Assembly (NCBI GenBank): GCA_037446815.1
Contig: JBBIHX010000018.1
Location: forward strand, 1-34,017
Origin: Caldilineae bacterium
GTDB lineage: Bacteria > Chloroflexota > Anaerolineae > DTLA01
Direction: 5' to 3'
DNA: 34,017 nucleotides
This document shows positions 3,580 through 33,841 of this stretch, piece by piece; the first letter of the stretch is position 1; each line of letters begins with the position of its first letter. Made by a program: the position numbers and the translations under genes. The notes beneath the pieces were generated by a model, which saw only the letters and a list, made by a program, of their open reading frames with translations, was not told the DNA's origin and did not search any database.

Positions 3580-4368
3580 ATGGCAGACCGCCGAGAGCCA
3601 ACGGTGCAATCCGTAGAGCGGGCCATCGCTATCCTGCGATCCTTCTCCCGCGAGAAGCCCGAGCGCGGCGTCACCGAACTGAGCCGGGAACTCGGCGTCC
3701 ACAAGAGCACCGTGTTCCGTCTGTTGGCGACGCTGGAGCGCCACGGCCTGGTGGCCCGCAACCCAGAGACGGAGCGGTACCGCCTGGGGCTGGACCTGCT
3801 CATCCTTGCGGCGCAGGTGGTGGAGCACCTGGACCTGCGCGAGATCGCCCGCCCTCACTTGCGCGATCTGTCCGAACGTTGCCAAGAGACCGTGAACCTG
3901 GCCATCCTCCATGAGGGGCAGGTGATGGACATTGAACAATTCGCGCCACCAGTGCGAAGCGTCAAGAACATCGGCTGGGTTGGCCGCCGGATGCCGCCCC
4001 ACTGCACGGCGGCCGGCAAGGTGCTGCTGGCCCATCTCCCGCGGGACAGGCTGGAGCGGTTCCTACAGTCCCGGCTGGAGCGCCTGACCCCCCGAACCAT
4101 CACAGCCCCCGAACGCCTGCGCGAGGAATTGGAGCGCGTGCGCGCCCTGGGGTACGCCATCGCGGAGGAGGAACTGGAAGACGGGCTGAACGCGCTGGCG
4201 GCGCCGATTTACGACCACACCGGCGCGGTGAATGCCGCCGTGAGCCTGGCCGGGCCGGCGTTCCGCATCCCGCCGGCGATGTTCCCGCACCTGGCGGGGC
4301 TGCTTCTGGACACGTGCGCCCGAATCTCGGCCGAATTGGGATACCGACCGGACCGCGCGCATCCCTGA
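3580..4368 (+). CDS. IclR-family transcriptional regulator
   Basis: VQSVERAIAIL...GVTELSRELGVHKSTVFRLLATL HTH; HCTAAGKVLLA; GYAI...EELEDGLNALAAPI effector domain. Confidence 0.95.
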   Translation: MADRREPTVQSVERAIAILRSFSREKPERGVTELSRELGVHKSTVFRLLATLERHGLVARNPETERYRLGLDLLILAAQVVEHLDLREIARPHLRDLSERCQETVNLAILHEGQVMDIEQFAPPVRSVKNIGWVGRRMPPHCTAAGKVLLAHLPRDRLERFLQSRLERLTPRTITAPERLREELERVRALGYAIAEEELEDGLNALAAPIYDHTGAVNAAVSLAGPAFRIPPAMFPHLAGLLLDTCARISAELGYRPDRAHP

Positions 4369-4418
4369 CGCTGGGGCAGGGGGCCGTCCGGCAGATTCTG
4401 CTGTCATAGGAGACGCGT

Positions 4419-5291
4419 ATGGAGACTGTTCTGAGGAGTGCCCGTAAGACCGTCGTCATCGGCCCGGACAAGCCGACCGTCCTCATCGGCGAGCGCATCA
4501 ATCCCACGGGCAAGAAGCGCCTGGCGGCCGCGTTGGCCGAGGGCAACCTGGACATCGTGCGCCAGGAGGCCGAGGCGCAGGTGGATGCGGGCGCGGATGT
4601 CCTGGACGTGAACGTTGGGGCCGCGGGGATTGATGAGGTGGATTTGCTCCCCAAGGCCGTGAAGTTGGTGGCCGAGACGGTGGACGTTCCGCTGTGCGTG
4701 GACAGCGCGAACCCTGCTGCTCTGCGCGCTGCTCTGACGCTGTACCGCGAGTTGGTGCCCAACGGCAAGCCGCTGGTGAACTCGGTCAACGGCGAGGCGG
4801 CGAGCATGGAGCGCGTCCTGCCGCTGGTGGCCGAATTCGGGACGGCGGTCATCGGCCTGGCGATGGACGAGGGCGGCATTCCTCCGACGGCAGAGGGCCG
4901 GCTGGCCGTGGCCCGTCGCATCGTGGAGCGCGCCGAGGCGTTGGGCATCCCGCGCCAGGATGTGGTGATTGACTGCCTGGCGCTGACCGTGGGGGCCGAC
5001 TCGCGCGCGGGCCTGGTTACCCTGGATGCCATCCGCATGGTGCGCGAGGAGTTGGGCGTGAACATGACGCTGGGGGCGAGCAACGTCTCCTTTGGCCTGC
5101 CGGAGCGCGAGACCATCAACTGGGTGTTCCTCGCGATGGCCATTGAGCGCGGGGTGAACTGCCCGATTGTGGATGTGGCCAAGGTGCGGCCCGCCGTCCT
5201 GGCAACCGACCTGCTGCTGGGGCGCGATGAGTACGCGATGCGCTATCTCAAGGACTACAAGAAGCGCCTGAAGGCCACGCAGGCCAAGTAG
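4419..5291 (+). CDS. Pterin-binding methyl-corrinoid:tetrahydrofolate methyltransferase (MT2; MetH-pterin/AcsE-like)
   Basis: IGERINPTGKK, DVNVG, LCVDS, VNSVNGE and LGASNVSFGLPER motifs; AGGAG RBS. Confidence 0.9.
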   Translation: METVLRSARKTVVIGPDKPTVLIGERINPTGKKRLAAALAEGNLDIVRQEAEAQVDAGADVLDVNVGAAGIDEVDLLPKAVKLVAETVDVPLCVDSANPAALRAALTLYRELVPNGKPLVNSVNGEAASMERVLPLVAEFGTAVIGLAMDEGGIPPTAEGRLAVARRIVERAEALGIPRQDVVIDCLALTVGADSRAGLVTLDAIRMVREELGVNMTLGASNVSFGLPERETINWVFLAMAIERGVNCPIVDVAKVRPAVLATDLLLGRDEYAMRYLKDYKKRLKATQAK

Positions 5292-5323
5292 CCCGCGGCA
5301 CACGATTCTCGGCGAGGATTGCA

Positions 5324-6031
5324 GTGCCCACCGTCGTGCGCGATATTCCCATAACCCTGACCCCCGACGCGCTCTTGGAATCCCAGGCGCGCAAGGGACG
5401 GCCCGCGCTCCAGAAGCCCCTGGCGCGCCGCTCGGCGGAGCAGGCTGTCGCCATGGCCCTGGCGTTGGCGCGCCCGGCGGCGGTCTGGGATGAGTTCGCC
5501 GTGGCGAGCGTGTCGGACGGCGTCCTCGCGTTGGAGTCCCCCGCCGGCGTGCGCCACCTGACGATGGGACAAGGCGTCGGTCTCCTGCGGGAGGCGCGCC
5601 GAGTCTTCGTCGCCGTTTGGACCATTGGGCCGGAACTGGAGGCCCGCGTGAACCAATTGCAGCGCCAGGGGGATACCCTCTTGGCGTTCATGCTGGACGC
5701 GGCGGGCGTGCTGGCCCTGGGGGCGGTGGGCGAGGCGGTGCGGCGAATCGCCGAGGAGCGCGCGGCGGGGCAGGGTTGGGGCGTGTCGCCCGCGCTCAGC
5801 CCTGGGTCGCTCGTCGGGTGGCCGGTGGATGGGCAGCGGGACCTGTGCGCGCTCCTGCCGTTGCGCGAGATCGGCGTGGAACTGTCGCCCTACTGCGTGC
5901 TGCAGCCCCACAAGTCGTGCTCGGTGCTCATCGGGAGCGGGCCTGGCCTCCCGTCCAAGCACGTGGGCGCGCTGTGCCGCTACTGCTCGCTGGCCGAGAC
6001 CTGCTGGCGCAGGCGGGAGGACGCCGAATGA
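5324..6031 (+). CDS. Stand-alone MetH reactivation-domain-like protein
   Basis: AVWTIGPELE, LLAFMLDAAG, SPG...WPVDGQ, IGVEL...LQPHKSCS, C-terminal CxxCxxxxxCxxR; GTG start. Confidence 0.75.
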   Translation: MPTVVRDIPITLTPDALLESQARKGRPALQKPLARRSAEQAVAMALALARPAAVWDEFAVASVSDGVLALESPAGVRHLTMGQGVGLLREARRVFVAVWTIGPELEARVNQLQRQGDTLLAFMLDAAGVLALGAVGEAVRRIAEERAAGQGWGVSPALSPGSLVGWPVDGQRDLCALLPLREIGVELSPYCVLQPHKSCSVLIGSGPGLPSKHVGALCRYCSLAETCWRRREDAE

Positions 6032-8043
6032 CCGTCGCGCTTGGCATTGACACGGGCGGGACCTACACGGACGCCGCGCTGGTGCGGGAGCGCACGGGCG
6101 AGGTGCTCCATTCGGCCAAGGCGCTGACCACGCGCTGGGACCTGTCCATCGGCATCGGCGAGGCGATTGCGGCGGTGTTGGCGTCAGGGGCGGCGTCGCC
6201 TTCGGACATCAGTTTGGTGGCCCTGTCCACGACGCTGGCGACCAACGCCATCGTGGAAGGCCAGGGCAGCCCCGCGTGCCTCATCCTCATCGGCTACGAC
6301 CGCGACTTGATGCGCGAGTTCGGATTTGAGGGCGCGCTGGTAACGCCCGACGTGGCCTACGTGGGGGGCGGGCACGACGCCATGGGCGATGAGGTGTCGC
6401 CGCTGGACGAAGACGGCCTGCGGCAGGCCGTCGCGGCGCGGATGGGGCGGGTGGGCGCGTTCGCGGTCTCCGGCTACTTCGCGACGCGCAACCCCTCGCA
6501 TGAACTGCGGGCGCGGGCCATCATTGAGGAGATGACCGCGTCGGCCTCGGATGGCGGCAATCCCCTGCCGGTAACGTGCGGGCACGAACTGTCGGCGCAA
6601 CTGAACGCGGTGCGCAGGGCCACCACGGCGGCGCTGAATGCGCGGCTTATCCCCCTGCTGCAAGATCTCATTTCCACCGTGCGGCGGACGCTAGAGGCGC
6701 ACGGGATTTCCGCTCCCCTCATGGTGGTGAAGGGCGACGGGTCGCTTGTGTCCGCCGAGTGGGCGATGCGCCGCCCGGTGGAAACGATTCTTTCGGGCCC
6801 GGCGGCCAGTGCGGTTGGCGCGTGGCATCTGGCCGGCCGCCAAGATGTGTGGGTGGTAGATGTAGGCGGGACGACGACCGACATCGCCGCGCTGCGAGGC
6901 GGCCGCCCGCGCCTGAACCCCGAAGGGGCGCGCGTGGGCCAGTGGCAGACCATGGTGGAGGCGGTGGATGTGCGGACGACCGGCCTGGGCGGCGACAGCC
7001 TGGTGCGCGTGGACGGGGAGCGGCGACTCCACATCGGGCCGGGCCGCGTTGTGCCCCTGTGCCTGCTGGCCGCGCAGTACCCGGACGTGCTGGCGGAATT
7101 GGAGCGCCAGGCCGCCAAAGCGGCGGATGAGCCCTGGACAGGACAGTTTGCGCTGGTGCAGGGCCGGCCAGTGAACGCGCTCTCGGAAGAAGAGTCGCGC
7201 TTGCTCCGCAGCCTGGGCCAGGCTCCCAAGCCGCTGTCGGCGTTGCTGCGCGAGGAGGGGTACCCGCTGGTTGCCCTGCGGCGGCTGGAGCGATTGGAGG
7301 CCATGCGCATCGTGATGCGGGCCGGGTTCACGCCCACCGACGCGCTCCATGTGCTGGGGCGCTTCCGCGAGTGGGATGAGCGAGCGTCGCTGCTGGGCGC
7401 GCGCGTCCTCGCAAGGCTGGCGGGATGCTCCGCCGAGGCGCTGTGCGAGCGCGTGGTGGAGCAGGTGTCGGCGCGGATTGCGAAGGAACTCGTTGCCAAG
7501 GTTCTGGGGGATGAGGGCGTCGCGGTGGATTGGGCCGGCGCTGCCGAAGAAGCGTTCTTCGCGCGCGCCACGGACAGTGGGGCGAATTCTAGCCTGGGGT
7601 GTCGCCTGTTCCTGCGGGAGCCTATCGTGGGCATCGGCGCGCCGGCAGAAGCCTACATGCCCCGCGTGGCCGAACTCCTTCACACCGACCTTATCATCCC
7701 CGAACATGCCGAGGTGGCGAATGCGGTCGGGGCCGTCGCGGGCGGCGTGATCCAGCGGTGGCGGGTCATGGTGCAGCCGCTCCCCGGCGGCGAGGCGTTC
7801 CGAGCGCACCTGCCCGACGGGGTGCGGGATTTCGCCACCGTGGAGGACGCCGTGGCCTACGCCGAGCGGACGGTTCCCGCCGCGTTGGAGGCGACGGTGC
7901 GCCAGGCGGGGGCGGCGCACGTGGAGGTGCACGTAGCGCGGGAAGACCGCGTCGCCGTGGCGCAGGCGGGATGGGGCCAGGAAATCTATCTATGCACGGA
8001 ACTTACGTTCACCGCAGCGGGGCGACCGAGTCCGGCGCGGTGA
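6028..8043 (+). CDS. Hydantoinase/oxoprolinase A-family (ASKHA-type ATPase) protein, with no B subunit in the window
   Basis: GIDTGGTYTD, STTLATNAIVEG, ETILSGPAAS, DVGGTTTD, GLGGDS, FTPTDALHV, VANAVGA; GGAGG RBS and ATGA overlap at 6028-6031. Confidence 0.88.
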   Translation: MTVALGIDTGGTYTDAALVRERTGEVLHSAKALTTRWDLSIGIGEAIAAVLASGAASPSDISLVALSTTLATNAIVEGQGSPACLILIGYDRDLMREFGFEGALVTPDVAYVGGGHDAMGDEVSPLDEDGLRQAVAARMGRVGAFAVSGYFATRNPSHELRARAIIEEMTASASDGGNPLPVTCGHELSAQLNAVRRATTAALNARLIPLLQDLISTVRRTLEAHGISAPLMVVKGDGSLVSAEWAMRRPVETILSGPAASAVGAWHLAGRQDVWVVDVGGTTTDIAALRGGRPRLNPEGARVGQWQTMVEAVDVRTTGLGGDSLVRVDGERRLHIGPGRVVPLCLLAAQYPDVLAELERQAAKAADEPWTGQFALVQGRPVNALSEEESRLLRSLGQAPKPLSALLREEGYPLVALRRLERLEAMRIVMRAGFTPTDALHVLGRFREWDERASLLGARVLARLAGCSAEALCERVVEQVSARIAKELVAKVLGDEGVAVDWAGAAEEAFFARATDSGANSSLGCRLFLREPIVGIGAPAEAYMPRVAELLHTDLIIPEHAEVANAVGAVAGGVIQRWRVMVQPLPGGEAFRAHLPDGVRDFATVEDAVAYAERTVPAALEATVRQAGAAHVEVHVAREDRVAVAQAGWGQEIYLCTELTFTAAGRPSPAR

Positions 8044-8088
8044 GTGTGAGGATAAACAACACAACATATCAGTGGAGGATGAACGAAA

Positions 8089-8721
8089 ATGGCAGACATT
8101 CTACAAAAAATCGCGAGCAAGTTGTACGAGGGCGAAGACGAGGAAGTGGCAGAACTGGTTCAGCGGGCGCTGGACTCCGGCCTGACGCCCAAGGAGATTC
8201 TCCAGGATGGCCTCATTGCCGGCATGGATCAGGTGGGCAAGGACTTCAAGGCCGGCGACCTGTTCGTGCCCGAGGTGCTCATCGCGGCGCGCGCCATGCA
8301 CGCGGGGATGAACGTGCTGCGCCCGCTCCTGGCGGCCAGCGATTCGCCGACGGTGGGCAAGTACGTCATCGGCACGGTGAAGGGGGACCTGCACGACATC
8401 GGCAAGAACCTGGTGAAGATGATGCTGGAAGGCGCCGGGTTTGAGACGGTGGACCTTGGCACGGACGTGGCGCCCGAGGCGTTCGTGAAGGCGGTGCAGG
8501 AGCACAAGCCGCGCATCGTCGGCATGAGCGCGCTGCTCACGACGACCATGGTGAACATGAAGACGACCATTGACGCGCTCCAGGAGGCCGGGCTGCGGGA
8601 TTCGGTCAAGATCATGGTGGGTGGCGCGCCGGTAACGGCGGCTTTCGCCCAGCAGATCGGCGCCGACGCCTACGCGCCGGATGCCGCCACGGCGGTGGAT
8701 GTGGCGCGCAAGTTGGCGTAG
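8089..8721 (+). CDS. Corrinoid (cobalamin-binding) protein, MttC/MtbC/MtqC family
   Basis: Cap FVPEVLIAARAM; GTVKGDLHDIGKNLV (DxHxxG); MSALLTTTM; IMVGGAPVT. Confidence 0.95.
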   Translation: MADILQKIASKLYEGEDEEVAELVQRALDSGLTPKEILQDGLIAGMDQVGKDFKAGDLFVPEVLIAARAMHAGMNVLRPLLAASDSPTVGKYVIGTVKGDLHDIGKNLVKMMLEGAGFETVDLGTDVAPEAFVKAVQEHKPRIVGMSALLTTTMVNMKTTIDALQEAGLRDSVKIMVGGAPVTAAFAQQIGADAYAPDAATAVDVARKLA

Positions 8722-8774
8722 TCGCCCCGCGACGGGGGCCGTGATGGGGAGCGAGGGCGCGGGTCTAGGAGCGC

Positions 8775-8809
8775 GAGATTCTTCGCGGCTTCGCCGCTCA
8801 GAATGACAG
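8775..8809 (+). repeat. REP-like hairpin GAGATTCTTC-[stem-loop]-TCAGAATGACAG, copy 1
   Basis: Flanks identical to the copy at 33972-34006; inner stem GCGGC-TTC-GCCGC. Confidence 0.8.
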
Positions 8810-8909
8810 CCCCGTGGCCTTTCCGTTGGGCGAGGGGGCAGTCTCGGAGCGGGGACTGCCTCGCAAGGGCACGATGAGCATCATGAGATTACGATGAAGG
8901 GAGATTCTT

Positions 8910-10355
8910 GTGTCCGAACAGATACCCATTGAGACACTGCGTCCAACCATGCGTATGTTGTCGGACGAGCAGGTCCAGGCGATTCACAACACCAGCCTGG
9001 ACATCCTGTCTCGCACCGGTATTGTGATGAAGAACGAGAAGGCGCGGCGGCTGCTTCTGGACGCCGGCGCCTGGGAGTCGGAGGGCCGTATCAAGATACC
9101 GGAGCACCTGGTGATGAGCGCCATTGGGTCGGCGCCGTCGCGCATCCCGATGTACAACCGCCTGGGCGATTTGGTCATGCCGCTGGAGGCCGGGAACGTG
9201 TTCTTCGGCAGCGGCTCGGACTGCGTGTTCACCATTGACGTGGAGACGGGCCAGCGCCGCAAGGCCACCTATGAGGACGTGTACCGTATCGCCCGCCTGA
9301 CCGACGGCCTGGACGAGATTTCGTGCATCATGTCCATGAGCAACCCGTCGGATGTGCCGCCGCTGGATGTGTACATTCACGGGTTCATCGGCATGATTCG
9401 CGGGTCGGTGAAGCCCAACGTGTACACGGCGAACCATCGGGGCGACATGGAGGACATCTACCGCATCGCGTGCGCCGTGGCGGGCAGCGAGGAGCGCCTT
9501 CGCGAGCGGCCGTTCCTGATGTTGTACGCGGAATCCATCTCGCCGCTGCTGTATCCCGACGAGTCGGTGGACAAGTTGCTGTTCTGCGCCGAGAAGCGGA
9601 TTCCGGTTACCTATCCGCCTTCGCCGAACACGGGCGGCGGGGGGCCCATAACCCTGGCGGGCGCGCTGGCGCTGGGCAACGCCGAGTGCCTGGTGGGGCT
9701 GGTGCTGACACAGTTGGTGCGGCCGGGCACGCCGTTCCTGTACGGCATGAACACGGCCGCGCTGGACATGCGTTCGGCCATCGTCAGTTACGGCGCGCCG
9801 GAATGGCCCACGGGCATGGCGGCCTGGTGCGACATCGCGCGGTACTATGGGCTGCCCACATGGGGCGCGGCGGGCGCTAGCGACAGCAAAGTTGTGGATG
9901 CCCAGGCGGGCCTGGAAGCCGCCATCACCATCATGACGGCGTACCTGACCCGCTGCAACCTGGTGCACGATGTGGGATACATGGAATATGGCTCCACGTC
10001 GTCCATGGAGATGCTGGTCATCGCCGACGAGATCATCCGCGACGTTCGCTTCATCATGAACGGCGTGGAGGTGAGCGAGCGGACGCTGGCGCGCGAGGCG
10101 ATCCATCGGGCGACGCCCGGCGGCGGGTTCCTCGCCGATGAGCATACGCTGCGCAACTGGAAGTGGGCGCAGTTCCGTCCGCGCGTGATAGACCGCATGC
10201 GCTACGACGAGTGGGCCGCGAAGGGCGGCAAGGACATGGCGGCGCGCGCCAACGAGCGGGCACGTCGCATCGTGGCGGAGCATGAAGTCCCGCCATTGCC
10301 GGAAGCGGCCGAGGAGGAAATCGCGTCGGTGCTGCGGCGGCGGGCCGGCAAGTAG
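8910..10355 (+). CDS. Non-pyrrolysine MttB-superfamily methyltransferase, paralogue 1
   Basis: IHNTSLDILSRTGI, GGGPITLAGAL, QLVRPGTPFLYG, YGLPTWGAAGASDSKVVDAQAG, HDVGYME, PGGGFL; GTG start after AAGGGAG. Confidence 0.92.
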   Translation: MSEQIPIETLRPTMRMLSDEQVQAIHNTSLDILSRTGIVMKNEKARRLLLDAGAWESEGRIKIPEHLVMSAIGSAPSRIPMYNRLGDLVMPLEAGNVFFGSGSDCVFTIDVETGQRRKATYEDVYRIARLTDGLDEISCIMSMSNPSDVPPLDVYIHGFIGMIRGSVKPNVYTANHRGDMEDIYRIACAVAGSEERLRERPFLMLYAESISPLLYPDESVDKLLFCAEKRIPVTYPPSPNTGGGGPITLAGALALGNAECLVGLVLTQLVRPGTPFLYGMNTAALDMRSAIVSYGAPEWPTGMAAWCDIARYYGLPTWGAAGASDSKVVDAQAGLEAAITIMTAYLTRCNLVHDVGYMEYGSTSSMEMLVIADEIIRDVRFIMNGVEVSERTLAREAIHRATPGGGFLADEHTLRNWKWAQFRPRVIDRMRYDEWAAKGGKDMAARANERARRIVAEHEVPPLPEAAEEEIASVLRRRAGK

Positions 10356-10366
10356 CGGAGGATACC

Positions 10367-12492: not shown

Positions 12493-12554
12493 GGAAACCT
12501 CCTGGCGGGACGGTCCCGATAGGCCGTGCCGGTGTATGCTGTACATTCATACGT

Positions 12555-12583
12555 ATTATAGCACAAGAAACATAGAATTGCAA
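12555..12583 (-). promoter_or_regulatory. Promoter of the GntR gene
   Basis: Minus strand: TTGCAA, 17-bp spacer ending TGTGC, then TATAAT (extended -10). Confidence 0.75.
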
Positions 12584-12601
12584 CACCTTGGCGTATCTCT
12601 A

Positions 12602-14843: not shown

Positions 14844-14934
14844 CACGAGGCGAGTGCGCCTACGGTTCACCAACACAAGATGAAACCGACTCCTAACGCG
14901 TGGTGAGCCTGAACTTGTGCAGCAAGGGAGTAGC

Positions 14935-25803: not shown

Positions 25804-27239
25804 GATCCGCAAATCGCATCGCATTCACATCGCCGCAGTTCGCAGTTCTCTCGGAGCAGCAAAAGCAGGATCTGCACCTGGCCGCGCTGGAGGTGTTGCG
25901 CCGCACGGGCGTGCGGTTCCACCATCGGGGCGCGCTGGAGATGCTGAAGAAGGCCGGGGCCTTCGTGTCCGACGGCAATCTGGTGAAGTTTCCGGCGCGG
26001 CTCATCACCGAGGCGCTGTCGTCGCCGCCGAGCCGCGTCGTCATGTGCGACCGGGATGGCGCGCCGGCCATGTTGCTGGAGGGGACCCGGACGTACTTCG
26101 GGACTGGGTCGGATTGCCTGAACCTTCTGGACCCGGAGACGGGGGCCCATCGCCCGTTCACCCAGGCCGACATCGTGAACGGCTACCATCTGTGCGAGGC
26201 GCTGCCCAACATCCACTTCGTGATGTCCATCGGAATCCCGTCGGATGTGGCGCCGGCCCTGACCTACGACGTGCAGATGGCGCTGATGCTGGAGCACACG
26301 ACCAAGCCCATTGTCTTCGTTACCAACGACGGGGCCAGTTGTCGGCGGGCGATTGACATGGCGGCAGCGGTGGCAGGCGGGCACGAGGCCTTGCGCGAAC
26401 AGCAGCATATTCTGCTGTACTCGGAGCCTTCGTCGCCGCTCCAGCAGTCGGAGACGGCGGTGGACAAGTTGCTCCTTATGGCCGAGCACGAACTCCCCGT
26501 AGTGCACTCGCCTGGGCCACAGATGGGCGCGACGGCTCCCATCACGATGGCGGGCGGGCTGGTGATGTCGCTGGCGGAAATCCTGAGCGGCCTGGTTGTG
26601 CACCAGTTGCACAGGCCGGGCGCGCCATTTGTCTTTGGCGCGGGCCTGCACCACATGGACATGGGCGCGATGCAGATTTGCTACGCTTCGCCCGAGTTCC
26701 AGTTGACCAAGGCAGCGGTGGCCGAGATGGGGCGCTGGTACGGGCTGCCCACGTGGGGATACGCGGGCTGCTCCGACGCGAAGGTGATGGACGAGCAGGC
26801 GGCGCTGGAGGCCATGCTGTCGGTCCTCATGGCGAAACTCAGCGGGGCGAACCTGATTCACGACGTGGGCTACATGGAAAGCGGCCTTACCACATCGTTT
26901 GAGATGATCGTGCTGACCGACGAACTCGTCGCGATGGCGGATCACGTGATGAAGGGCATTGAGGTCAGCGAGTCCACGCTCATGGTGGATGAACTGGATG
27001 CGGTGGGGCCAGGCGGCAACTTCCTGGGGACGCGCACGACGCTCCAGCGGTTCCGCGAGTTCTGGTTCCCGAGCCTCTTGGATCGCAAGATGCGGCCGCA
27101 GTGGGTGGAGGCTGGGGCGACAACCCTGGGGCAGCGACTCACGGCAAAGGTGCGGGACATCTTGCGGAATCATTCGCCGAAACCGCTGCCGCCGGAAATC
27201 AAGCGGCGCGTGTGGGACATCGTCTCCAGCGCCAACTAA
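25800..27239 (+). CDS. Non-pyrrolysine MttB-superfamily methyltransferase, paralogue 3
   Basis: LHLAALEVLRRTGV, GATAPITMAG, YGLPTWGYAGCSDAK, HDVGYMESG, VGPGGNFL; ATGA overlap with mal. Confidence 0.92.
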   Translation: MRSANRIAFTSPQFAVLSEQQKQDLHLAALEVLRRTGVRFHHRGALEMLKKAGAFVSDGNLVKFPARLITEALSSPPSRVVMCDRDGAPAMLLEGTRTYFGTGSDCLNLLDPETGAHRPFTQADIVNGYHLCEALPNIHFVMSIGIPSDVAPALTYDVQMALMLEHTTKPIVFVTNDGASCRRAIDMAAAVAGGHEALREQQHILLYSEPSSPLQQSETAVDKLLLMAEHELPVVHSPGPQMGATAPITMAGGLVMSLAEILSGLVVHQLHRPGAPFVFGAGLHHMDMGAMQICYASPEFQLTKAAVAEMGRWYGLPTWGYAGCSDAKVMDEQAALEAMLSVLMAKLSGANLIHDVGYMESGLTTSFEMIVLTDELVAMADHVMKGIEVSESTLMVDELDAVGPGGNFLGTRTTLQRFREFWFPSLLDRKMRPQWVEAGATTLGQRLTAKVRDILRNHSPKPLPPEIKRRVWDIVSSAN

Positions 27240-27272: not shown

Positions 27273-28730
27273 GTGGATACGAACTACAGCGCTCATCAGA
27301 CTCCGCAATTCCGCGTGCTGTCGGATGCGCAGGCGCGGGTCATCTACTACGGGGCCTTGGAGGTCCTGAACCGCACGGGCGTGAATGTGCACAACGCCGA
27401 GGCGCGGGACTTGCTGGCGAAGGCCGGCGCTCGCGTGGATGGCGTGCGGGTATGGATTCCGCCGCACATCGTGCAGGACGCCATCGCCGCGACGCCGCGC
27501 ACGTTCACCCTGTGGGGCAGGGATGGCAAGCCGCGCATCCAGGTGGCGCCGGACCGCGTTCACTTCGGCCCCGGGCTGACGAACACGTATTTCGTAGACC
27601 CGGAGACCGGCGAGCGGCGCAAGACGCGGCGCGGCGACCCGGCGCTCACCGCCAAGGTGTGCGATGCGCTGCCGAACATAGACTACGTCATGGGGCTGGG
27701 CCTCATCGGCGACGTGCCGCCCAACCTGGCCCCCGTGTACGAGTTCGCGGAGATGGTGGCCAACACCACGAAACCGGTGATGCCCTGGGCCTACAACCTG
27801 GACAACGCGCGCGACATCTACGAGATTGCGGTGGCGGTGGCAGGCAGCGAAGAGGCCCTGCGTCGTCGGCCGTTCCTGGCCTTCTTCGCCACGTTCCAGG
27901 CGCCGCTGATGGCGACGGATCACGATTTGGCCAACGTGCTGTGGATGGCCGAGCGGGGGATTCCGGTCATCTACCTGGGCGGGGGCGCGGCGGGCAGCAC
28001 GGCGCCGATTACCGGCGCGGGGCTCCTGGTGTCGTATCTGGCGGGGGCGCTGACCGGGCTTGTGGCGGTGCAACTGAAGGCGCGCGGCGCTCCCATTTGT
28101 ATCGGGGGCGTCCCCGAGCCGACGGACCTTCGCACGGCCCGCCCGGCCTACGGCGGCCCGGAAATGAGCCTGTACAGCGCGGCCATGTCAGATTTGGCGC
28201 GGTACCTGGGCGTGCCGTTCATGGGGACGGCCGGGGCGTCCGAGGCCAAGGTGCTGGACCTGCAGGCGGCGATTGAGTGCACGGTTCAGGTGCTGATGTC
28301 CGGCCTGAGCGGGGCGAGCCTGGTGCACGATGTGGGCTTCCTGGATTGCGCCGACATCGGCTCGCTGGAGTCGGTTGTCATGAACGATGAGATCATCGCC
28401 ATGGCGCGCCGAATCCTGCGCGGGGTTGAGGTCAGCGACGCGAGCATGATGCTGGACCTGATTGACAAGGTTGGCCCCGGCGGCGAGTTCATGTCCACCA
28501 AAGAGACGGCCAAACTGTGCCGCTCCGAAATCTGGACGCCCACGCTGTTTGACCGCGAGCCGTGGGTCAATTGGGAGATGAACGGCGCGCTGACCACGCT
28601 GGACCGCATTCGCCGGAAACTGCGCGACATCCTCGCGAATCACCGCGTGCCGCCGCTGCCCGCCGAGACCGAGGCGCGCATCCGCGCCATCTTGGAGGCC
28701 GCCGAGGCACGCGAGCGACGCAACGGGTAG
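27273..28730 (+). CDS. Non-pyrrolysine MttB-superfamily methyltransferase, paralogue 4
   Basis: ALEVLNRTGV, GSTAPITGAG, LGVPFMGTAGASEAK, HDVGFLD, VGPGGEF; GTG start. Confidence 0.92.
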   Translation: MDTNYSAHQTPQFRVLSDAQARVIYYGALEVLNRTGVNVHNAEARDLLAKAGARVDGVRVWIPPHIVQDAIAATPRTFTLWGRDGKPRIQVAPDRVHFGPGLTNTYFVDPETGERRKTRRGDPALTAKVCDALPNIDYVMGLGLIGDVPPNLAPVYEFAEMVANTTKPVMPWAYNLDNARDIYEIAVAVAGSEEALRRRPFLAFFATFQAPLMATDHDLANVLWMAERGIPVIYLGGGAAGSTAPITGAGLLVSYLAGALTGLVAVQLKARGAPICIGGVPEPTDLRTARPAYGGPEMSLYSAAMSDLARYLGVPFMGTAGASEAKVLDLQAAIECTVQVLMSGLSGASLVHDVGFLDCADIGSLESVVMNDEIIAMARRILRGVEVSDASMMLDLIDKVGPGGEFMSTKETAKLCRSEIWTPTLFDREPWVNWEMNGALTTLDRIRRKLRDILANHRVPPLPAETEARIRAILEAAEARERRNG

Positions 28731-28736: not shown

Positions 28737-31487
28737 ATGGGCACTGCGATCTCGTTCACGCTCAACGGGCGGCCGGTAACGGTTCAGACGGAGCCAACGC
28801 GCACGCTGCTGGAGGTCCTCCGCTCCGAGTTCGGCCTCACGGGGACCAAGCAGGGCTGCGACCTGGAGGGGGAGTGCGGAGCCTGCACCGTGCTGCTGGA
28901 TGGAGTGCCGGTGCGGTCGTGCCTCACGCCGATGGGCAAAGTGGCGGGGCGGGATGTGTTGACCGTGGAGGGGCTTGGCGACCCCGACCACTTGCACCCG
29001 CTGCAACGGGCGTTCGCCGAGACGGGCGCGGTCCAGTGCGGGTACTGCACGCCCGGGATGCTCATGGCGGCTGCCGGCCTGCTGACGCGCAATCCCAACC
29101 CCACCCGCGCGGAGATTGTGGAGGCGCTGGAAGGCAACCTGTGCCGCTGCACCGGCTACGTGCGGATTGTGGCCGCGGTGGACTTGGCGGCGGCGTGGAT
29201 GCGCGGCGACGCGCCATCGGGCGTTGCCGCGCCGCAGACGAGGCCCGTCGGCGGGGACCTGCTGCGGGTGGACATCGCCGAGCGAGTTACCGGCCGCACG
29301 CGGTATGTGGAAGACATGCCCATGCCCGGCGCGCTCCACGTGCGGGTTGTGCGCAGTCCCCACCCCCACGCACGCGTGGTGGCCATAGACGCGGGGCGGG
29401 CGATGCAAGTGCCCGGCGTGCTGCGGGTGCTCACCGCGGCCGACATCCCAGGGCAGAACAGCATTGAGGGCTACAGCAAGGACGAGACGGTGCTGGCGCC
29501 CGTGGGCGGCACGGTCAAGATGGTGGGGGATGCGGTGGCGCTGGTGATTGCCGAGACGCCAGAGGCAGCGGAGGAGGGCCGACGGGCGGTCAGGGTGTCG
29601 TATGAGCCGCTGCCTGCGCTCCTGGATGTGGACGAGGCCCTTGCGCCCGACGCCGTGGAAATCCACGCTGGCGGGAACGTGCTGAGCACCTTTTCGGTGG
29701 CGCATGGAGATGTGGATGAGGCGCTGGCTGCGAGCGACGCGGTGCTGGACGTAACGTACCGCACGTCGTACCTGGAACACGCCACAATAGAACGCGAGGC
29801 GGCCCTGGGGTATATAGACGAAGAGGGTCGCATCACCATCGTGAGCGGGACGCATGAGCCGCACTGGCATCGGGACTTCGTCGCGCCGGTGCTGGGGCTG
29901 GAGCCGTCGCAGGTTCGGGTCATCATGCCGCCCACGGGCGGGTCCTTCGGCAAGCGCCAGGATCCGTGGCTGGCGGCGGCGACGGCGCTGGCGGTGTACC
30001 ACATGCGACGACCGGTGCGCGTGGCCTACACCCGCCGCGAATCCTTTGACGCCTCGCCCAAACGACACCCGTACACAAGCCGGTACACGGTGGGCGCGAC
30101 CGCCGATGGGAGAGTTACGGGTCTGCGACTGCACATCACCGCCAACACGGGCGCGTATGACTCCGGGGGCTACTGGATTCCCAACTACGCCGTGGTGGCA
30201 GGCGGCGGGCCATACCGCTGGCGGGGCGTGGACGCCTTCGCGCAGAGTGTCTATACCAACGGGCCCAAGTCGGGCCAGATGCGCGGATACGGCACGCCGC
30301 AGTCCAACTTTGCCCTGGAGTGCACCCTGGACGAGTTGATACAGCGGCTGGGCGATGATCCGGTGGAGTTCCGCTTGCGCAATGCCATTCGGCAGGATGA
30401 GGCCACATGGCTCGGCTACCCCGTGGCGGAGTCGCTGGGCTACCGCGAGGTGCTGGAGGCGATTCGCCCGCACTATCGGGCGCTTGAGGCGGCGGCGCGT
30501 GCATTCAACGAAGGCGAAGGCCCTTGGCGCAGAGGCGTGGGGCTGGCGGGCATGTGGTACCGCTTCGGCAAGTACGGCATCCCGCGCGTCGCGGCGGAGG
30601 CGGAACTGGGGCTGGACGGGCGTTTCGTCGTGTACTGCTCCGCGCCGGACTACGGACAGGGCATCACAACCGTGATTGTGCAACTGGCCGCCGAGACGCT
30701 GGGCGTTTCGCGCGACGCCATCCGCCTGGTGAACGCGGACACGGCGACGACGCTGGATAGCGGGGTTCCCGGGGCGTCGCGAGCCACCTACTGGGTCGGC
30801 GGGGCGGTGTCCCGCGCGGTGGCGGCGTTGCGGGAGGTGGTGGCCGAAGCGGCGTCGGAGATGCTGGACTGCCCGCCGTCGGCCGTCGTGTTGGCCGATG
30901 ACCGCGCGCTGGTGCAGGGCGACCGGAGCCGTTTCGTTCGCCTGGGCGATGTTGCGGCGGAAATGGAGCGGCTGGGGCAGTCCCGCAAGGTACGGGGCGT
31001 CTTTGACTTGAGCGCGCAGTTCCCCAATCATGAGCGGGAAGTGTACACGCCCCATTTCGTTACCGGCGCGCAGGTGGCCGAGGTGCTGGTGAACGTGGCG
31101 ACGGGCCAGGCGCGGGTAACTCGCATGGTGGCGGCGCACGATGTGGGCCGGGCCATCAACCCACGGGACGCTCGTGGGCAGATAGAAGGGGCCATTGTGA
31201 TGGGGCTGGGGGCTGCGCTGATGGAGGAGTACGTGCCGGGGGTTACCACCGGCTTCTCCAACTACTACATTCCCACGGCCAAGGCCATGCCCGAGATAGA
31301 CGTCATCCTGGTGGAGGTGCCGAGTTATCAGGGGCCTCTCGGCGCGAAGGGGCTGGGCGAGGCGCCGATACTCCCTACCGCGCCGGCCATTGTCAACGCC
31401 ATCTCCCGCGCCATCGGCGCGCGCATCCACGAGATTCCCGCCACGCCCGAGCGCATCCTGGCTGCTAGAGGGGGAGGGCTACGATGA
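28737..31487 (+). CDS. Xanthine dehydrogenase/aldehyde oxidoreductase-family molybdoenzyme with fused 2x[2Fe-2S] and Mo-binding domains
   Basis: TKQGC..GECGACTV, QCGYCTPG, NLCRCTGY, RSPHPHA, GGSFGKR, MRGYGTPQ, YGQG, GQIEG, AKGLGE. Confidence 0.93.
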   Translation: MGTAISFTLNGRPVTVQTEPTRTLLEVLRSEFGLTGTKQGCDLEGECGACTVLLDGVPVRSCLTPMGKVAGRDVLTVEGLGDPDHLHPLQRAFAETGAVQCGYCTPGMLMAAAGLLTRNPNPTRAEIVEALEGNLCRCTGYVRIVAAVDLAAAWMRGDAPSGVAAPQTRPVGGDLLRVDIAERVTGRTRYVEDMPMPGALHVRVVRSPHPHARVVAIDAGRAMQVPGVLRVLTAADIPGQNSIEGYSKDETVLAPVGGTVKMVGDAVALVIAETPEAAEEGRRAVRVSYEPLPALLDVDEALAPDAVEIHAGGNVLSTFSVAHGDVDEALAASDAVLDVTYRTSYLEHATIEREAALGYIDEEGRITIVSGTHEPHWHRDFVAPVLGLEPSQVRVIMPPTGGSFGKRQDPWLAAATALAVYHMRRPVRVAYTRRESFDASPKRHPYTSRYTVGATADGRVTGLRLHITANTGAYDSGGYWIPNYAVVAGGGPYRWRGVDAFAQSVYTNGPKSGQMRGYGTPQSNFALECTLDELIQRLGDDPVEFRLRNAIRQDEATWLGYPVAESLGYREVLEAIRPHYRALEAAARAFNEGEGPWRRGVGLAGMWYRFGKYGIPRVAAEAELGLDGRFVVYCSAPDYGQGITTVIVQLAAETLGVSRDAIRLVNADTATTLDSGVPGASRATYWVGGAVSRAVAALREVVAEAASEMLDCPPSAVVLADDRALVQGDRSRFVRLGDVAAEMERLGQSRKVRGVFDLSAQFPNHEREVYTPHFVTGAQVAEVLVNVATGQARVTRMVAAHDVGRAINPRDARGQIEGAIVMGLGAALMEEYVPGVTTGFSNYYIPTAKAMPEIDVILVEVPSYQGPLGAKGLGEAPILPTAPAIVNAISRAIGARIHEIPATPERILAARGGGLR

Positions 31488-32380
31488 CGCTGTATCACGT
31501 GGCTGCGTCGGTAGAGGAAGCCTTGAGGGTTCTGGAAGAGTACGGCGGCGAGGCGCGCATCATCGCAGGCGGGACGGATGTGATGGTAGACATGCGCAAG
31601 GGGAAGATTGCGCCGCGCTGTCTGGTAGACATAACTCGGATTGCGGAGTTGCGGCAGATTGCCGTTGAGGGCGAGGTGGTGCAGGTCGGGGCTGCCGTAA
31701 CCTTCGCCGAGATTCACCGGCACCCGTTCATCGCGCGGCGCGTTCACGTGCTGGCCGAAGCCGCGCGCTCGGTGGGCGCGCTGCCGATCCAGACGGCGGC
31801 GACATGGGCGGGCAACATCGTGCAGGCGATGCCCGCCGCCGACGGCGCCATCGCGGCGGTGGCGTTGCAGGCCGAGGCCCGCGTGGCCGACAGGGCGGGG
31901 GCGGAGTGGAAACCCGTGGAGGCGCTCTTCGCGGGGCGGGGGGTCTCGGCGGTGGATTCGCGCCGCCAGATGATCACCCACATCCGATTTCGCGTGCCGC
32001 CGGTGCGGTGGGGGAGCGCGTGGAGCCGCGCAGGACGCCGGGAGTCGCTGGTGCTGCCCACGCTGAACTGCGGGGTAAGCGTGCGCCTGGGCGATGATGG
32101 CAGGATTGAGGATGTGGCCATCGCGCTGGGGCCTGTGGCTCCGCGCCCGTACCGCGCCCGGGACGCGGAGGCGGTCCTGCGCGGGAGGTTGCCCGATGCG
32201 GATGCTTTCGCCGAAGCGGGCTGCGTCATCAGCGGCGATTGCAACCCACGCACCAGCCCGGCCCGGGCGACCCGCGAATACCGCCTGGCGCTGATTCCGG
32301 AGATGGTGGTGCGGACGCTGGAGGCGGCCACGGAGCGCGCCCGGCATTTGACAGAAGAGGCAGTGCCTTCCAATATTTGA
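31484..32380 (+). CDS. FAD-binding (medium) subunit of the Mo-hydroxylase
   Basis: IAGGTD, VGAAVT, IQTAATWAGNIVQAMPAAD, IALGPVAPRP; ATGA overlap at 31484-31487. Confidence 0.92.
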   Translation: MTLYHVAASVEEALRVLEEYGGEARIIAGGTDVMVDMRKGKIAPRCLVDITRIAELRQIAVEGEVVQVGAAVTFAEIHRHPFIARRVHVLAEAARSVGALPIQTAATWAGNIVQAMPAADGAIAAVALQAEARVADRAGAEWKPVEALFAGRGVSAVDSRRQMITHIRFRVPPVRWGSAWSRAGRRESLVLPTLNCGVSVRLGDDGRIEDVAIALGPVAPRPYRARDAEAVLRGRLPDADAFAEAGCVISGDCNPRTSPARATREYRLALIPEMVVRTLEAATERARHLTEEAVPSNI

Positions 32381-32410
32381 CATAATATCATAGTCTAGGA
32401 GGAACCTACC

Positions 32411-33841
32411 ATGACAATCAGTACCCAGGCATTTCCACGGTTGGAGATGCTCACCAAGGAGCAGTGCGAAGTCATCCACCGCGCGTCGCTGGAGATTTTG
32501 CGGCGGACCGGCGTGCGCGTGTACCACGAGGAGGCGCTGACCCTGTTGCGGCAGGCGGATGTCAGCATCACCGACGGCAACCTGGTGCGGTTCCAGCCCG
32601 GGCTTGTGGAGTGGGCCTTGGCGCAGGCGCCGTCGCGCATCGCCCTGTGCAAGCGGGGGAGCAACGAGGTGGGCGCGGCGTTGGAGGGGCGCAACGTGAA
32701 CTTCGGCACCGGCTCGGACTGCCCCAACTACTTGGATCCGCGCACCGGGCAGGTTCGCCCGTTCACGCTGGCCGACGTGGTGGACGCGATTCACGTGGTG
32801 GACGCTCTGCCCGAGTTGCAGTTCTGCATGTCCATGGGCATTCCGTCGGACCTGAAGACGGCCAACGCCTACCGCCATCAGTTTGCGCTCATGCTGGAGC
32901 ACACGACGAAGCCCATCGTGTTCGTGTGCGACGACCGCGCCGACTGCGAGGCGATTTCGGCGATGGCAGCGGCGGCCGCAGGAGGCATGGAGCAGTTGCG
33001 GCTGAATCCCACGCTGCTGCTGTATTCCGAGCCGTCCACGCCGCTGAAGCATTCCGAGACGGCCACGGGCAAATTGCTGTTCATGGCCGAGAACATGTTG
33101 CCCATCGTGCACTCGCCCGCGCCCATGATGGGCGGGACGGCGCCGGTAACCATGGCGGGCGCGCTGGCCCTGGGCAACGCGGAAACGCTGTCCAGCCTGG
33201 TGATGCACCAATTGAAGCGCCCTGGTGCGCCGTTTGTGTACGGGAGCGGCCTGCACCACATGGACATGAAGACGACCATCAGCGTGTACGGCGCGCCGGA
33301 GTTCCAGTTGGCCCGCGTGGCCGTGGCCGAGATGGGGCGCTTCTACGGCTTGCCCACGTGGGGGTACGCCGGCCACTCGGACAGTTGCACCATGGACGAG
33401 CAGGCGGCGGCCGACGCGACGTTCTCCGTCCTGGTGGCGCTGCTGGCGGGCAACAACCTGGTGCACGATGTGGGCTACCTGGAAGCCGGCCTGACGACAT
33501 CGCCGGAGATGATCGTGTTCACCGCGGAAATCATCTCCATGATGCGCGCGTTCATGGGCGGCGTGGCGCTGGATGCCGAGTCGCTGGCGCTGGACGTGAT
33601 TCACAAGGTGGGGCCGGGCGGCGACTTCCTCACCCAGAAGCACACGCTGAAGCACTTCCGCGACCTGTGGGAGCCGAGCCTGTTCAGCCGCCAGCGGATG
33701 GAGGATTGGGTGGCGCAGGGCAGCAAGCGGTTGGGGCAGCGCCTGAAGGAGAAGACGCTTGCCATCCTTGAGAGCCACAAGCCGCAGCCGCTGCCGGATT
33801 CGGTGCGCGCGGAGATTGAGTACATTCTGAAGGGCAAGTGA
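32411..33841 (+). CDS. Non-pyrrolysine MttB-superfamily methyltransferase, paralogue 5
   Basis: IHRASLEILRRTGV, GGTAPVTMAGAL, YGLPTWGYAGHSDS, HDVGYLEAG, VGPGGDFL; AGGAGG RBS. Confidence 0.93.
   Translation: MTISTQAFPRLEMLTKEQCEVIHRASLEILRRTGVRVYHEEALTLLRQADVSITDGNLVRFQPGLVEWALAQAPSRIALCKRGSNEVGAALEGRNVNFGTGSDCPNYLDPRTGQVRPFTLADVVDAIHVVDALPELQFCMSMGIPSDLKTANAYRHQFALMLEHTTKPIVFVCDDRADCEAISAMAAAAAGGMEQLRLNPTLLLYSEPSTPLKHSETATGKLLFMAENMLPIVHSPAPMMGGTAPVTMAGALALGNAETLSSLVMHQLKRPGAPFVYGSGLHHMDMKTTISVYGAPEFQLARVAVAEMGRFYGLPTWGYAGHSDSCTMDEQAAADATFSVLVALLAGNNLVHDVGYLEAGLTTSPEMIVFTAEIISMMRAFMGGVALDAESLALDVIHKVGPGGDFLTQKHTLKHFRDLWEPSLFSRQRMEDWVAQGSKRLGQRLKEKTLAILESHKPQPLPDSVRAEIEYILKGK

Follow-up and report, generated by a model that had tools for sequence, protein, structure and literature searches.

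A conserved Anaerolineae operon linking non-pyrrolysine MttB methyltransferases to a divergent methylaspartate ammonia-lyase homologue

Several three-component systems are known in which a non-pyrrolysine (non-Pyl) member of the MttB superfamily demethylates a quaternary amine through a corrinoid protein and the methyl group is passed to tetrahydrofolate (THF). They include MtgB/MtgC/MtgA of Desulfitobacterium hafniense and, in Eubacterium limosum, MtpB, MtcB, MtyB and MthB together with MtqC, MtqA and the activase RamQ. Their common features are a residue other than pyrrolysine at the pyrrolysine position and an ATPase gene in the cluster. MthB is the sixth member of the superfamily with a known substrate; the substrates of the others bear a carboxylate, and the known substrates are described as quaternary amines with an acidic group (PMC12155760). 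The characterised systems leave the demethylated product, as reported for choline (PMC12155760). A second well-described enzyme is methylaspartate ammonia-lyase (MAL), a member of the enolase superfamily that acts in glutamate fermentation and has been solved from Clostridium tetanomorphum and Citrobacter amalonaticus (1kcz, 1kko). Its catalytic bases are K331 and H194, while Q73 serves the amine; the Q73A variant takes a wide range of amines, including alkylamines both linear and cyclic, and L384A widens the scope for the C3 substituent (PMC7586795).

Here we describe a locus in which the two kinds of enzyme occur side by side. The window, by which we mean the whole stretch of 34,017 nucleotides analysed (contig JBBIHX010000018.1 of the Caldilineae bacterium assembly GCA_037446815.1; Chloroflexota, Anaerolineae), holds two adjacent gene runs, operon 1 (3580-11806) and operon 2 (12884-33841). 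Like the characterised systems they encode three-component methyl transfer; they differ from them in having five MttB paralogues, with at least nine clades among related loci, and in coupling these to skeleton-degrading lyases and a molybdenum (Mo) enzyme. One of the lyases is a divergent MAL homologue. We consider it possible, with a probability of roughly 45%, that the two operons carry out corrinoid-dependent catabolism of carboxylated quaternary amines (betaines) that ends in this MAL-family C-N lyase, and on our best reading the pathway is conserved in Anaerolineae and so far undescribed. What the analysis shows directly is to which families the genes belong, how they are arranged in operons, that their linkage is conserved and that the pocket of the lyase is altered.

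A divergent lyase in a conserved methyltransferase neighbourhood

The MAL homologue shares the fold of the solved MALs and keeps their catalytic residues (K331, H194, Q329 and Q172) and Mg ligands (D238, E273 and D307). Across its subfamily, the two bases and these Mg ligands are the same in 40 of 40 members. In contrast to canonical MAL, its pocket is changed at Q73A and at four further positions, F170H, Y356F, T360S and L384M. Where the wild type reads AVQYSG the homologue reads AVAYSG, identical to the engineered Q73A protein (3zvh); the proposed link to betaine catabolism suggests that an alkylamine-accepting pocket made by engineering is already present in nature. F170 and Y356, like L384, belong to the methyl-group pocket of MAL, and T360 and C361 have roles in the enzyme as well. 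A further difference is an insertion of 52 amino acids (residues approximately 118-169) with a conserved SRRDLLT. This motif, SRR[DE]LLT, resembles a twin-arginine signal but sits mid-protein.

More than 100 relatives of the homologue (66-85% identity, 452-492 amino acids) are present among 90%-identity clusters, the few named ones being proteins of Chloroflexi/Anaerolineae metagenome-assembled genomes (MAGs). We used an alignment of 40 of the 120 listed relatives as the seed for one scan of species-representative genomes with 10 kb flanks. The 80 loci retained comprise L001-L059, which are species representatives of Chloroflexota and all MAGs, and L060-L080, which belong to distant lineages. 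The window proteins and 16 further families were mapped on them by tblastn; a hit had to reach E ≤ 1e-8 and cover 40% or more of the query, and the best one was taken at each place. Every locus was selected by its MAL homologue, contig ends truncate many of the loci, and a paralogue is named after its best hit. Among the long-form MALs of Chloroflexota, none of the 56 covered at position 73 keeps Q73 (38 have Ala, 14 Glu and 4 another residue), His stands at the F170 position in all 59, and the insertion measures 49-84 amino acids in those covered there. Q73 is kept in 12 of the 21 distant forms, and the insertion is missing from all 21.

The neighbourhood is conserved as well. At least one MttB gene is present in 51 of the 59 Chloroflexota loci, in 34 of them within 700 nt of the MAL gene and on the same strand, as against 1 of the 21 distant loci (L063). 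Eight Chloroflexota loci have no MttB; five of these have less than 1 kb of sequence downstream of MAL, L055 has 2.3 kb, and L036 and L042 have 5.5-9.7 kb. The recurrent gene order is binding protein, permease, permease, ATPase, CBS protein, a variable slot, MAL, (MttB3), MttB4, (Mo enzyme and FAD subunit, or a tungsten aldehyde oxidoreductase (W-AOR)), MttB5. The commonest neighbour of the lyase is MttB4, whose orthologues, counted from 60% identity upwards, are present in 31 of the 59 loci; at the same threshold MttB5 occurs in 19 and MttB3 in 9. At 72% identity or more, MttB5 orthologues still number 19 and stand after the Mo enzyme or W-AOR, and the nine MttB3 orthologues, which follow MAL, have at least 74%. 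Transporter ATPase genes were mapped in 36 loci and the CBS-pair gene, after the ATPase gene, in 37. Rarer are the Fe-S protein (20), the Mo enzyme (19), its FAD subunit (14) and W-AOR (3), a Mo or W oxidoreductase being present in 22 loci altogether. The same holds for Zn (18) and Fe (3) alcohol dehydrogenases, a racemase-superfamily protein (18), a PrpD-like protein (11), an amidotransferase/peptidase C26 (7), a Cys/Met-type pyridoxal-phosphate (PLP) enzyme (5), a beta-keto-acid cleavage enzyme (BKACE; 3) and the hutU and hutH genes (6).

Could the lyase be an ordinary MAL after all? HutH and HutU would then lead from histidine to glutamate and on to 3-methylaspartate, with the remaining genes elsewhere in the genome and the betaine methyltransferases unrelated neighbours. 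Clostridium tetanomorphum ferments histidine in this way, the homologue scores above the TIGR01502 equivalog cutoff for MAL (463 vs 286 bits) with all catalytic residues kept, and on a plasmid of Gemmobacter fulvus hutIHGU lies within 3 kb of glmS-glmE-MAL. However, the window encodes neither chain of glutamate mutase, E or S, and the 59 loci show neither in their conserved clusters or in those of their open reading frames (ORFs) that were scanned. Among 74 nearest-neighbour ORFs scanned of the 184 listed for the distant loci, glutamate mutase is adjacent in 4 of the 12 loci that keep Q73 (L063, L065, L069 and L074), and it is adjacent on both plasmids inspected (Gemmobacter fulvus and Ensifer), which carry glmS-(glmL)-glmE-MAL. 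The homologue also stands without hut genes in 53 of 59 loci, its stop codon overlaps the start of MttB3, and Q73, F170, Y356 and L384 are all altered in a protein that has the insertion besides. We therefore regard classical histidine fermentation as very unlikely here. The sequence-only reading, made from the letters of this DNA, had named glutamate fermentation as the established role of MAL; the altered pocket, the insertion and the missing mutase speak against that role here, and the database name "methylaspartate ammonia-lyase" is probably wrong for the long-form clade.

Canonical MALs occur in other surroundings. A plasmid search with the homologue returned 18 records, all at 44% identity or less, and the two inspected are the canonical glmS/glmE-linked MALs mentioned above. 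The neighbours of the Q73-type MAL in L079 are a class-I fumarase, a racemase and a dicarboxylate carrier. Canonical glmS-glmE-MAL with Q73 is also present in a MAG of Candidatus Aerophobetes (L063:4741-9462), where it is followed directly by an MttB gene, the only MttB found beside a Q73-type MAL.

A third group consists of short MALs with Ser or Val at position 73 from Bdellovibrio-like and related lineages (L060, L062, L066, L067, L068 and L073). Their Q172 position is Ser, or Met in L066. Their genes lie in tight clusters (e.g., L067:311-5356) that also encode an aldehyde dehydrogenase and a transporter of the BCCT or OpuAC type, and four of the six hold in addition a HalD-like protein of the iron/2-oxoglutarate type. 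Two of the aldehyde dehydrogenases, those of L060 and L067, were scanned; in NCBIfam both match betaine-aldehyde dehydrogenase best, with scores of 536 and 503 bits that stay under its cutoff of 668. In a FastTree tree with the root placed on the canonical group, the Ser/Val-73 group is sister to the Chloroflexota long forms. The cluster looks like an aerobic counterpart of the pathway.

MttB paralogues, corrinoid machinery and importer

As the sequence-only reading had it, the window holds five non-Pyl MttBs, one corrinoid protein and one methylcorrinoid:THF methyltransferase, and three of the MttBs are co-directional with the importer, hutU, hutH, the MAL homologue and the Mo enzyme with its FAD subunit, in partly overlapping genes. 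Every gene of that reading was found again on our gene-dense plus-strand map, which was built from the ORF listing, Pfam and NCBIfam (Table 1). The map adds a scaffold gap, moves the starts of MAL and HutH (the latter a GTG) and makes the MAL a divergent subfamily.

The five MttBs match PF06253 at E = 1e-80 to 5e-116 across approximately 470 residues, with no internal stop. At the position of pyrrolysine in the Methanosarcina enzyme (the X of 7xcl), the alignment places A, M, C, A and H in MttB1-5. All five stay below the cutoff for trimethylamine (TMA) methyltransferase MttB proper (TIGR02369; 373-439 vs 525 bits). Pairwise identity is 33-54%; MttB2 has 33-36% identity to the other four and forms its own clade. 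Of the residues of MtgB that bind glycine betaine, Y97, R312, H348 and F356 (PMC13080624), only H348 is kept, as mapped by hand with a numbering offset of +2 from 9yce. In the order MttB1-5, the Y97 position is S/G/S/L/S, R312 is W/Y/W/M/W and F356 is G/M/G/A/G. By this comparison the pockets are not MtgB-like, and the mapping names no substrate.

A tree of 106 MttB ORFs of at least 380 amino acids from the related loci contains at least nine conserved clades. MttB1 orthologues (62-83% identity) lie beside corrinoid-protein and binding-protein genes in 8 loci. A plasmid search with MttB5 gave 195 records, all below 35% identity and hence not orthologous. Both the MttB and the MAL tree are FastTree trees with no printed support values and a root chosen by hand.

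The corrinoid methyl-transfer machinery of the window is complete. The corrinoid protein has its cap and Rossmann B12-binding domains and, at residue 100, DLHDIG, which fits the DxHxxG motif. Between the methyltransferase and corrinoid-protein genes lie two ORFs that may form a two-part corrinoid activase of a kind so far undescribed. One is an ASKHA ATPase whose closest solved relatives are the A-type subunits of 5-oxoprolinase and acetophenone carboxylase, matched over residues 3-339 only; from its gene position, it is the putative reductive activase of the corrinoid protein. The other, whose stop overlaps the ATPase start at 6028 (ATGA), has six Cys within its last 60 residues and is possibly the Fe-S partner of the ATPase. 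Activases of the RamA and RamQ type, made up of an Fe-S domain and an ASKHA domain, use ATP to reduce Co(II) to Co(I); the candidate here pairs a hydantoinase-A-type ASKHA protein with a coupled Cys-rich ORF, and the two arrangements are compared by description only. We also considered the ASKHA protein as an ATP-dependent hydantoinase for hydantoin-5-propionate and rejected it: a B subunit or domain is lacking, and the gene is placed within the corrinoid machinery.

The spacing from the transporter ATPase gene to MttB5 is -4 to 33 nt, the scaffold gap excepted, with two overlaps of 4 nt (MAL/MttB3 and Mo/FAD). The gap falls between the CBS and Fe-S genes, and the identical 11-mer on its flanks suggests that the two contig ends really overlap. 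Two independent assemblies, L001 and L002, are contiguous at this position with a spacer of 20-25 nt, so the linkage of hutU-hutH-CBS to the stretch from the Fe-S gene to MttB5 is real. L001 has the same gene order as the window, with 85-99% protein identity.

Two regulators are encoded in the window. The GntR/FCD regulator, divergent from operon 2, is not HutC (25.9 bits vs a cutoff of 220), and in L034, which has no hut genes, an orthologue lies upstream of the gene for the binding protein. The two promoter-like sites between it and the binding-protein gene are the only candidates in 19.3 kb; the perfect one has a TG extension, and both are predicted from the consensus match alone. A terminator scan found 12 sites against 8.4 expected, none of them convincing.

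The binding protein is of the Dpp/Opp/Nik type. Its best solved relatives, at E = 1e-31 to 1e-29 (8e-31 for the best in the Protein Data Bank (PDB) search), bind peptides, nickel, haem or opines, and no ligand can be inferred from that search; its nearest NCBIfam matches are nickel binders. The Fe-S protein combines a winged helix, a Cys-rich part and two [4Fe-4S] clusters. A fold search of its AlphaFold2 model (pLDDT, the predicted local confidence, 90) against the PDB found nothing at E ≤ 0.001, only partial matches to ArsR/TrmB-type helix-turn-helix and ferredoxin domains, and an atlas search with the protein returned only generic "4Fe-4S binding protein" clusters.

Upstream of operon 1 lies a Type ISP-like restriction-modification ORF of 1075 amino acids (102-3329, minus strand; N6_Mtase and a Type ISP C-terminal specificity domain, E = 2.7e-99), which is unrelated to the finding. 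A long plus-strand ORF that overlaps it (1383-3449) is without a family match and is probably spurious. Between the restriction-modification and IclR genes is a perfect tandem repeat with three copies of the 9-mer GGGCAGGTC (3420-3446).

Table 1. Features of the two operons in the window (positions in nucleotides)
Feature	Position	Strand	Matches and remarks
IclR-family regulator	3580-4368	+	PF09339, PF01614; below every NCBIfam equivalog cutoff; first gene of operon 1
Methylcorrinoid:THF methyltransferase, MtgA/MtqA-like, pterin-binding	4419-5291	+	PF00809; PRK07535 269.4 bits, cutoff 259
Cys-rich ORF, 235 amino acids	5324-6031	+	No Pfam or NCBIfam match
ASKHA ATPase, hydantoinase-A-like N-terminal half	6028-8043	+	PF05378, PF01968
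Corrinoid (B12-binding) protein	8089-8721	+	PF02607, PF02310; TIGR02370 226.6 bits, cutoff 215.3
MttB1, non-Pyl	8910-10355	+	PF06253 E = 1.6e-93; 399 bits vs TMA equivalog cutoff 525
MttB2	10367-11806	+	PF06253 E = 4.8e-116; most divergent paralogue
GntR/FCD regulator	11818-12546	-	PF00392, PF07729; divergent from operon 2
Divergent promoter-like sites, back to back	12555-12630	both	12/12 TTGACA-17-TATAAT facing binding-protein gene; 10/12 facing GntR
SBP_bac_5 family-5 binding protein	12884-14611	+	PF00496
ABC permease	14917-16236	+	PF00528, PF19300
ABC permease	16279-17163	+	PF00528, PF12911
Fused double ABC ATPase	17212-19290	+	Two PF00005 and two PF08352 stretches
Urocanate hydratase HutU	19306-20955	+	TIGR01228 940.6 bits, cutoff 375
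Histidine ammonia-lyase HutH, MIO type	20979-22556	+	TIGR01225 653 bits, cutoff 539; GTG start
CBS-pair protein	22575-23228	+	PF00571 twice
Scaffold gap, 100 N	23248-23347		Between CBS and Fe-S genes; 11-mer ttgaggtgcga on both flanks
Fe-S protein	~23360-24388	+	Fer4 families; start uncertain owing to gap
Divergent MAL-family (enolase-superfamily) C-N lyase, 468 amino acids	24397-25803	+	PF05034, PF07476
MttB3	25800-27239	+	PF06253; start overlaps MAL stop by 4 nt
MttB4	27273-28730	+	PF06253
Mo enzyme, xanthine-oxidase family, fused 2x[2Fe-2S] and molybdenum-cofactor domains	28737-31487	+	PF00111, PF01799, PF01315, PF02738, PF20256
FAD-binding subunit of Mo enzyme	31484-32380	+	PF00941, PF03450; 4-nt overlap with Mo gene
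MttB5	32411-33841	+	PF06253

The hut genes and the molybdenum enzyme

HutH and HutU are canonical and lie inside the tightly spaced operon with three MttBs. HutH has the GSLGASGDL motif, whose Ala-Ser-Gly forms the 4-methylideneimidazole-5-one (MIO) group. Compared with the Hut pathway, both proteins pass their equivalog cutoffs, yet only the first two steps are represented: the genes are embedded in a methyltransferase operon, and hutI, hutG, hutF and ftcD are found neither in the window (by Pfam and NCBIfam) nor among the scanned neighbours in L016, L018 and L050, while HutC is missing from the window. Ergothioneine catabolism uses a homologous enzyme pair, ergothionase and thiourocanate hydratase, on a histidine betaine. 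Ergothionase is not known to have an MIO group. The HutH of the window keeps ASG and is much nearer to histidine ammonia-lyase (E = 6e-125 to solved enzymes) than to ergothionase 6s7j (E = 9e-76), and the HutU is below both thiourocanate hydratase cutoffs (NF058530, 676 vs 930 bits; NF058531, 713 vs 880 bits).

The hut genes are present in the loci L001, L002, L003, L016, L018 and L050, that is, in 6 of the 42 loci with at least 6 kb upstream. In all six they lie directly upstream of MAL or, in the clade of the window, of CBS-Fe-S-MAL. The arrangement hutU-hutH-MAL occurs in three separate parts of the MAL tree, with two of its loci, L050 and L018, lying close to the base, and all 7 HutH copies retain the ASG/MIO motif, so the link between hut and MAL is more than an accident of one genome, yet it is a minority feature. 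The best reading of the hut genes is a lineage-specific histidine module, an add-on in a few related genomes.

The sequence-only reading had gone further and taken the whole island for the import and breakdown of an N-methylated histidine derivative (hercynine, N-alpha-methylhistidines, ring-methylated histidines or peptides), with the MttBs demethylating, possibly state by state, and HutH/HutU degrading the skeleton. Several observations fit. The two hut genes are canonical, stand within the operon 15-23 nt from their neighbours, and recur with MAL in the tree as described, with the ASG motif kept throughout. Since a free amine is required by MIO enzymes, removal of the methyl groups ahead of deamination would be in keeping with such an enzyme. 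The nickel binders nearest to the binding protein may also be counted here. The statement that no characterised MttB acts on a histidine derivative agrees with the substrates given in PMC12155760, and we found no publication that treats MttB and hercynine together, nor an MttB for histidine betaines in print; hercynine and corrinoid occur together in unrelated work only. Against this stands the rarity of hut genes (6 of 59 loci), whereas the link between MAL and MttB, which the same reading had drawn, is borne out in 51 loci. By these counts, the refuting condition that this reading had set itself, a hut/mal-MttB linkage not conserved in other genomes, holds in part. No MttB clade follows the hut genes in the tree of 106 ORFs or is specific to hut-bearing loci; L016 pairs hutU and hutH with a single MttB, the Mo-coupled MttB5. 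The later hut genes are missing as described, and the histidine model gives no role to conserved parts of the operon, namely the MAL homologue, which is not canonical, and the Mo enzyme. We consider histidine-derivative catabolism by the whole island unlikely, and what stands of it is the machinery, the canonical HutH and HutU and a linkage that recurs. A methylated histidine is possible as a substrate, not as the conserved theme of the loci.

The second conserved part, the Mo enzyme, has the full set of its family: two [2Fe-2S] clusters, the hammerhead domain, two domains that bind the molybdenum cofactor (Moco), and the FAD subunit. It reaches no NCBIfam cutoff. At full length it is closest to the aldehyde oxidoreductase (MOP) of Desulfovibrio gigas (E = 6e-128; 1sij), with which it shares the fused layout of Fe-S and Moco parts; matches to NdhM and NdhS were obtained as well. 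Taken by itself, the Moco part is nearest to NdhL of Eubacterium barkeri nicotinate dehydrogenase (270 bits over 408 amino acids, compared to 219 bits over 519 amino acids for MOP), an enzyme that likewise has a separate FAD subunit (3hrd). Because of this ranking, we withdrew a firm assignment as a plain MOP-type aldehyde oxidoreductase, and an aldehyde role rests on what replaces the enzyme elsewhere. In L009 (11330-13358) and L010 (13001-14884), a W-AOR occupies the exact slot of the Mo and FAD genes between MttB4 and MttB5. The W-AOR, the Mo and FAD pair and the aldehyde dehydrogenase of the sister clade point to non-orthologous replacement of an aldehyde-oxidising step. In addition, Zn or Fe alcohol dehydrogenases are encoded in 21 of 59 loci, in the variable slot next to MAL, and the best match of the Fe enzyme of L036 is choline dehydrogenase GbsB (206 bits, cutoff 550). 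This recalls the oxidation of choline through betaine aldehyde to glycine betaine by GbsB/GbsA or BetA/BetB. GbsB-like and betaine-aldehyde-dehydrogenase-like genes are found in related and sister loci, but they score below the equivalog cutoffs.

The likeness to nicotinate dehydrogenase raises the question of N-methyl heteroaromatic betaines (trigonelline, homarine or dimethylimidazolium). An MttB would remove the ring N-methyl group, the Mo enzyme would hydroxylate the freed ring in the manner of nicotinate dehydrogenase, the Fe-S protein would aid ring reduction, and the MAL homologue would deaminate the ring-opened amino-dicarboxylate. Besides the three Ndh matches, the FAD subunit is as in hydroxylases of the family, Mo-FAD-MttB5 is a tight recurrent trio, and the racemase-superfamily genes (18 loci) and PrpD-like genes (11 loci) belong to families that include enzymes of unsaturated dicarboxylates. 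On the other hand, the exchange for W-AOR in L009 and L010 and the NAD-type aldehyde dehydrogenase of the sister clade speak against it, no enamidase, 2-methyleneglutarate mutase or other gene of nicotinate fermentation appears among the ORFs scanned, and no hydroxylase cutoff of NCBIfam is reached. This alternative seems to us decidedly unlikely.

Other loci carry further genes around MAL. In L037 (11599-13844), L039 and L026 a BKACE gene lies just downstream of MAL, with a class-III aminotransferase beside it in L037 and L039; in L022 (11482-12297) the gene just downstream encodes acetoacetate decarboxylase. Such genes could make up a module that handles a skeleton resembling carnitine or aminohexanoate. 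Together with the proline-racemase-like gene and the amidotransferase, such variable modules suggest that the loci are mosaic betaine islands. L037 (5287-6693) and L039 also encode a reductive-dehalogenase-like, QueG-like Fe-S protein (TIGR02486, 148 bits, cutoff 160) among four further MttBs upstream of MAL.

A candidate route for betaines and its meaning

In the betaine pathway that we favour, we infer every substrate, the order of the steps and the role of the activase. Operon 1 would supply the shared one-carbon machinery, i.e., the methyltransferase, the putative activase, the corrinoid protein, MttB1 and MttB2. Operon 2 would be transcribed from a GntR-guarded promoter, and its Dpp/Nik-type ABC system would import the substrate. 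MttB3, MttB4 and MttB5 would move N-methyl groups to the corrinoid protein and from there to THF, the ASKHA protein and its Cys-rich partner re-reducing the corrinoid. Oxidation from alcohol to aldehyde to acid, by the alcohol dehydrogenase in relatives and the Mo enzyme here, would turn the skeleton into an aspartate-type dicarboxylate. The C-N lyases would be matched to the skeleton. The MAL-family lyase would act on the aspartate-type skeleton, probably still N-substituted, and yield a fumarate-type acid and ammonia or a methylated amine, while in the lineage of the window HutH/HutU would degrade a histidine skeleton, such as the obvious betaine, hercynine, would leave once all its methyl groups were removed.

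Which betaine would enter the route? Glycine betaine has no beta-hydrogen for a MAL-type elimination, which would imply a longer skeleton. The leading candidate is homoserine betaine, which would be converted by way of an aspartate-type betaine to fumarate. It would fit because an alcohol dehydrogenase and aldehyde oxidation would give the aspartate skeleton, because PLP enzymes of the O-acetylhomoserine type are encoded in 5 loci, and because the sister clade uses betaine transporters. Homoserine betaine serves Trichodesmium as its main osmolyte and also forms the head group of diacylglyceryl trimethylhomoserine (DGTS) lipids. Its breakdown is not treated in the titles and abstract openings of the literature matches listed, and 10.1101/2021.03.10.434842 describes the fate of trimethylhomoserine as unknown. 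Other substrates were considered and left unsupported, no gene being specific to diphthine, staphylopine-type opines, anserine or N-methylaspartate.

It is tempting to combine the parts into one scheme. The lyase would be a (methyl)amine-lyase for the aspartate-type betaine derived from homoserine betaine, the MttBs would also demethylate tertiary and secondary amines, and in the lineage of the window hercynine would be converted to histidine. We consider this full combination rather unlikely.

A number of points weigh against the betaine pathway. The lyase still exceeds the NCBIfam equivalog cutoff for MAL, its central place is partly built into a survey of MAL-seeded loci, and the trees have no support values and a root of our own choosing. 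The importer is of a peptide, nickel or opine type and not a classical betaine transporter. The Moco domain is nearer to nicotinate dehydrogenase than to aldehyde oxidoreductase by the scores given above. The window is without an alcohol dehydrogenase, although it ends only 176 nt after MttB5. Full removal of three methyl groups by the MttBs would make an enlarged amine pocket needless, and homoserine betaine leaves hutU and hutH unexplained.

In the literature searched, with subscription journals and supplements outside the search, no publication connects MAL with MttB, MAL and betaine are co-mentioned only incidentally, and the listed matches for Anaerolineae and MttB are survey papers. An unnamed, conserved operon of Anaerolineae in which many non-Pyl MttBs are joined with a remodelled lyase of the MAL family is a stronger and more general finding than histidine catabolism. 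It offers at least five conserved orthogroups with a defined set of genomic partners, a set that recurs in 59 species-level Chloroflexota genomes, which appear to come largely from sediment and subsurface assemblies. The betaine pathway would be the first link of an enolase-superfamily C-N lyase to betaine catabolism. If homoserine betaine or hercynine is the substrate, it would account for what becomes of abundant methylated nitrogen compounds under anaerobic conditions and identify a source of methyl groups in sediments; if the combined scheme is true for both, two alpha-amino-acid betaines would each gain a first anaerobic route.

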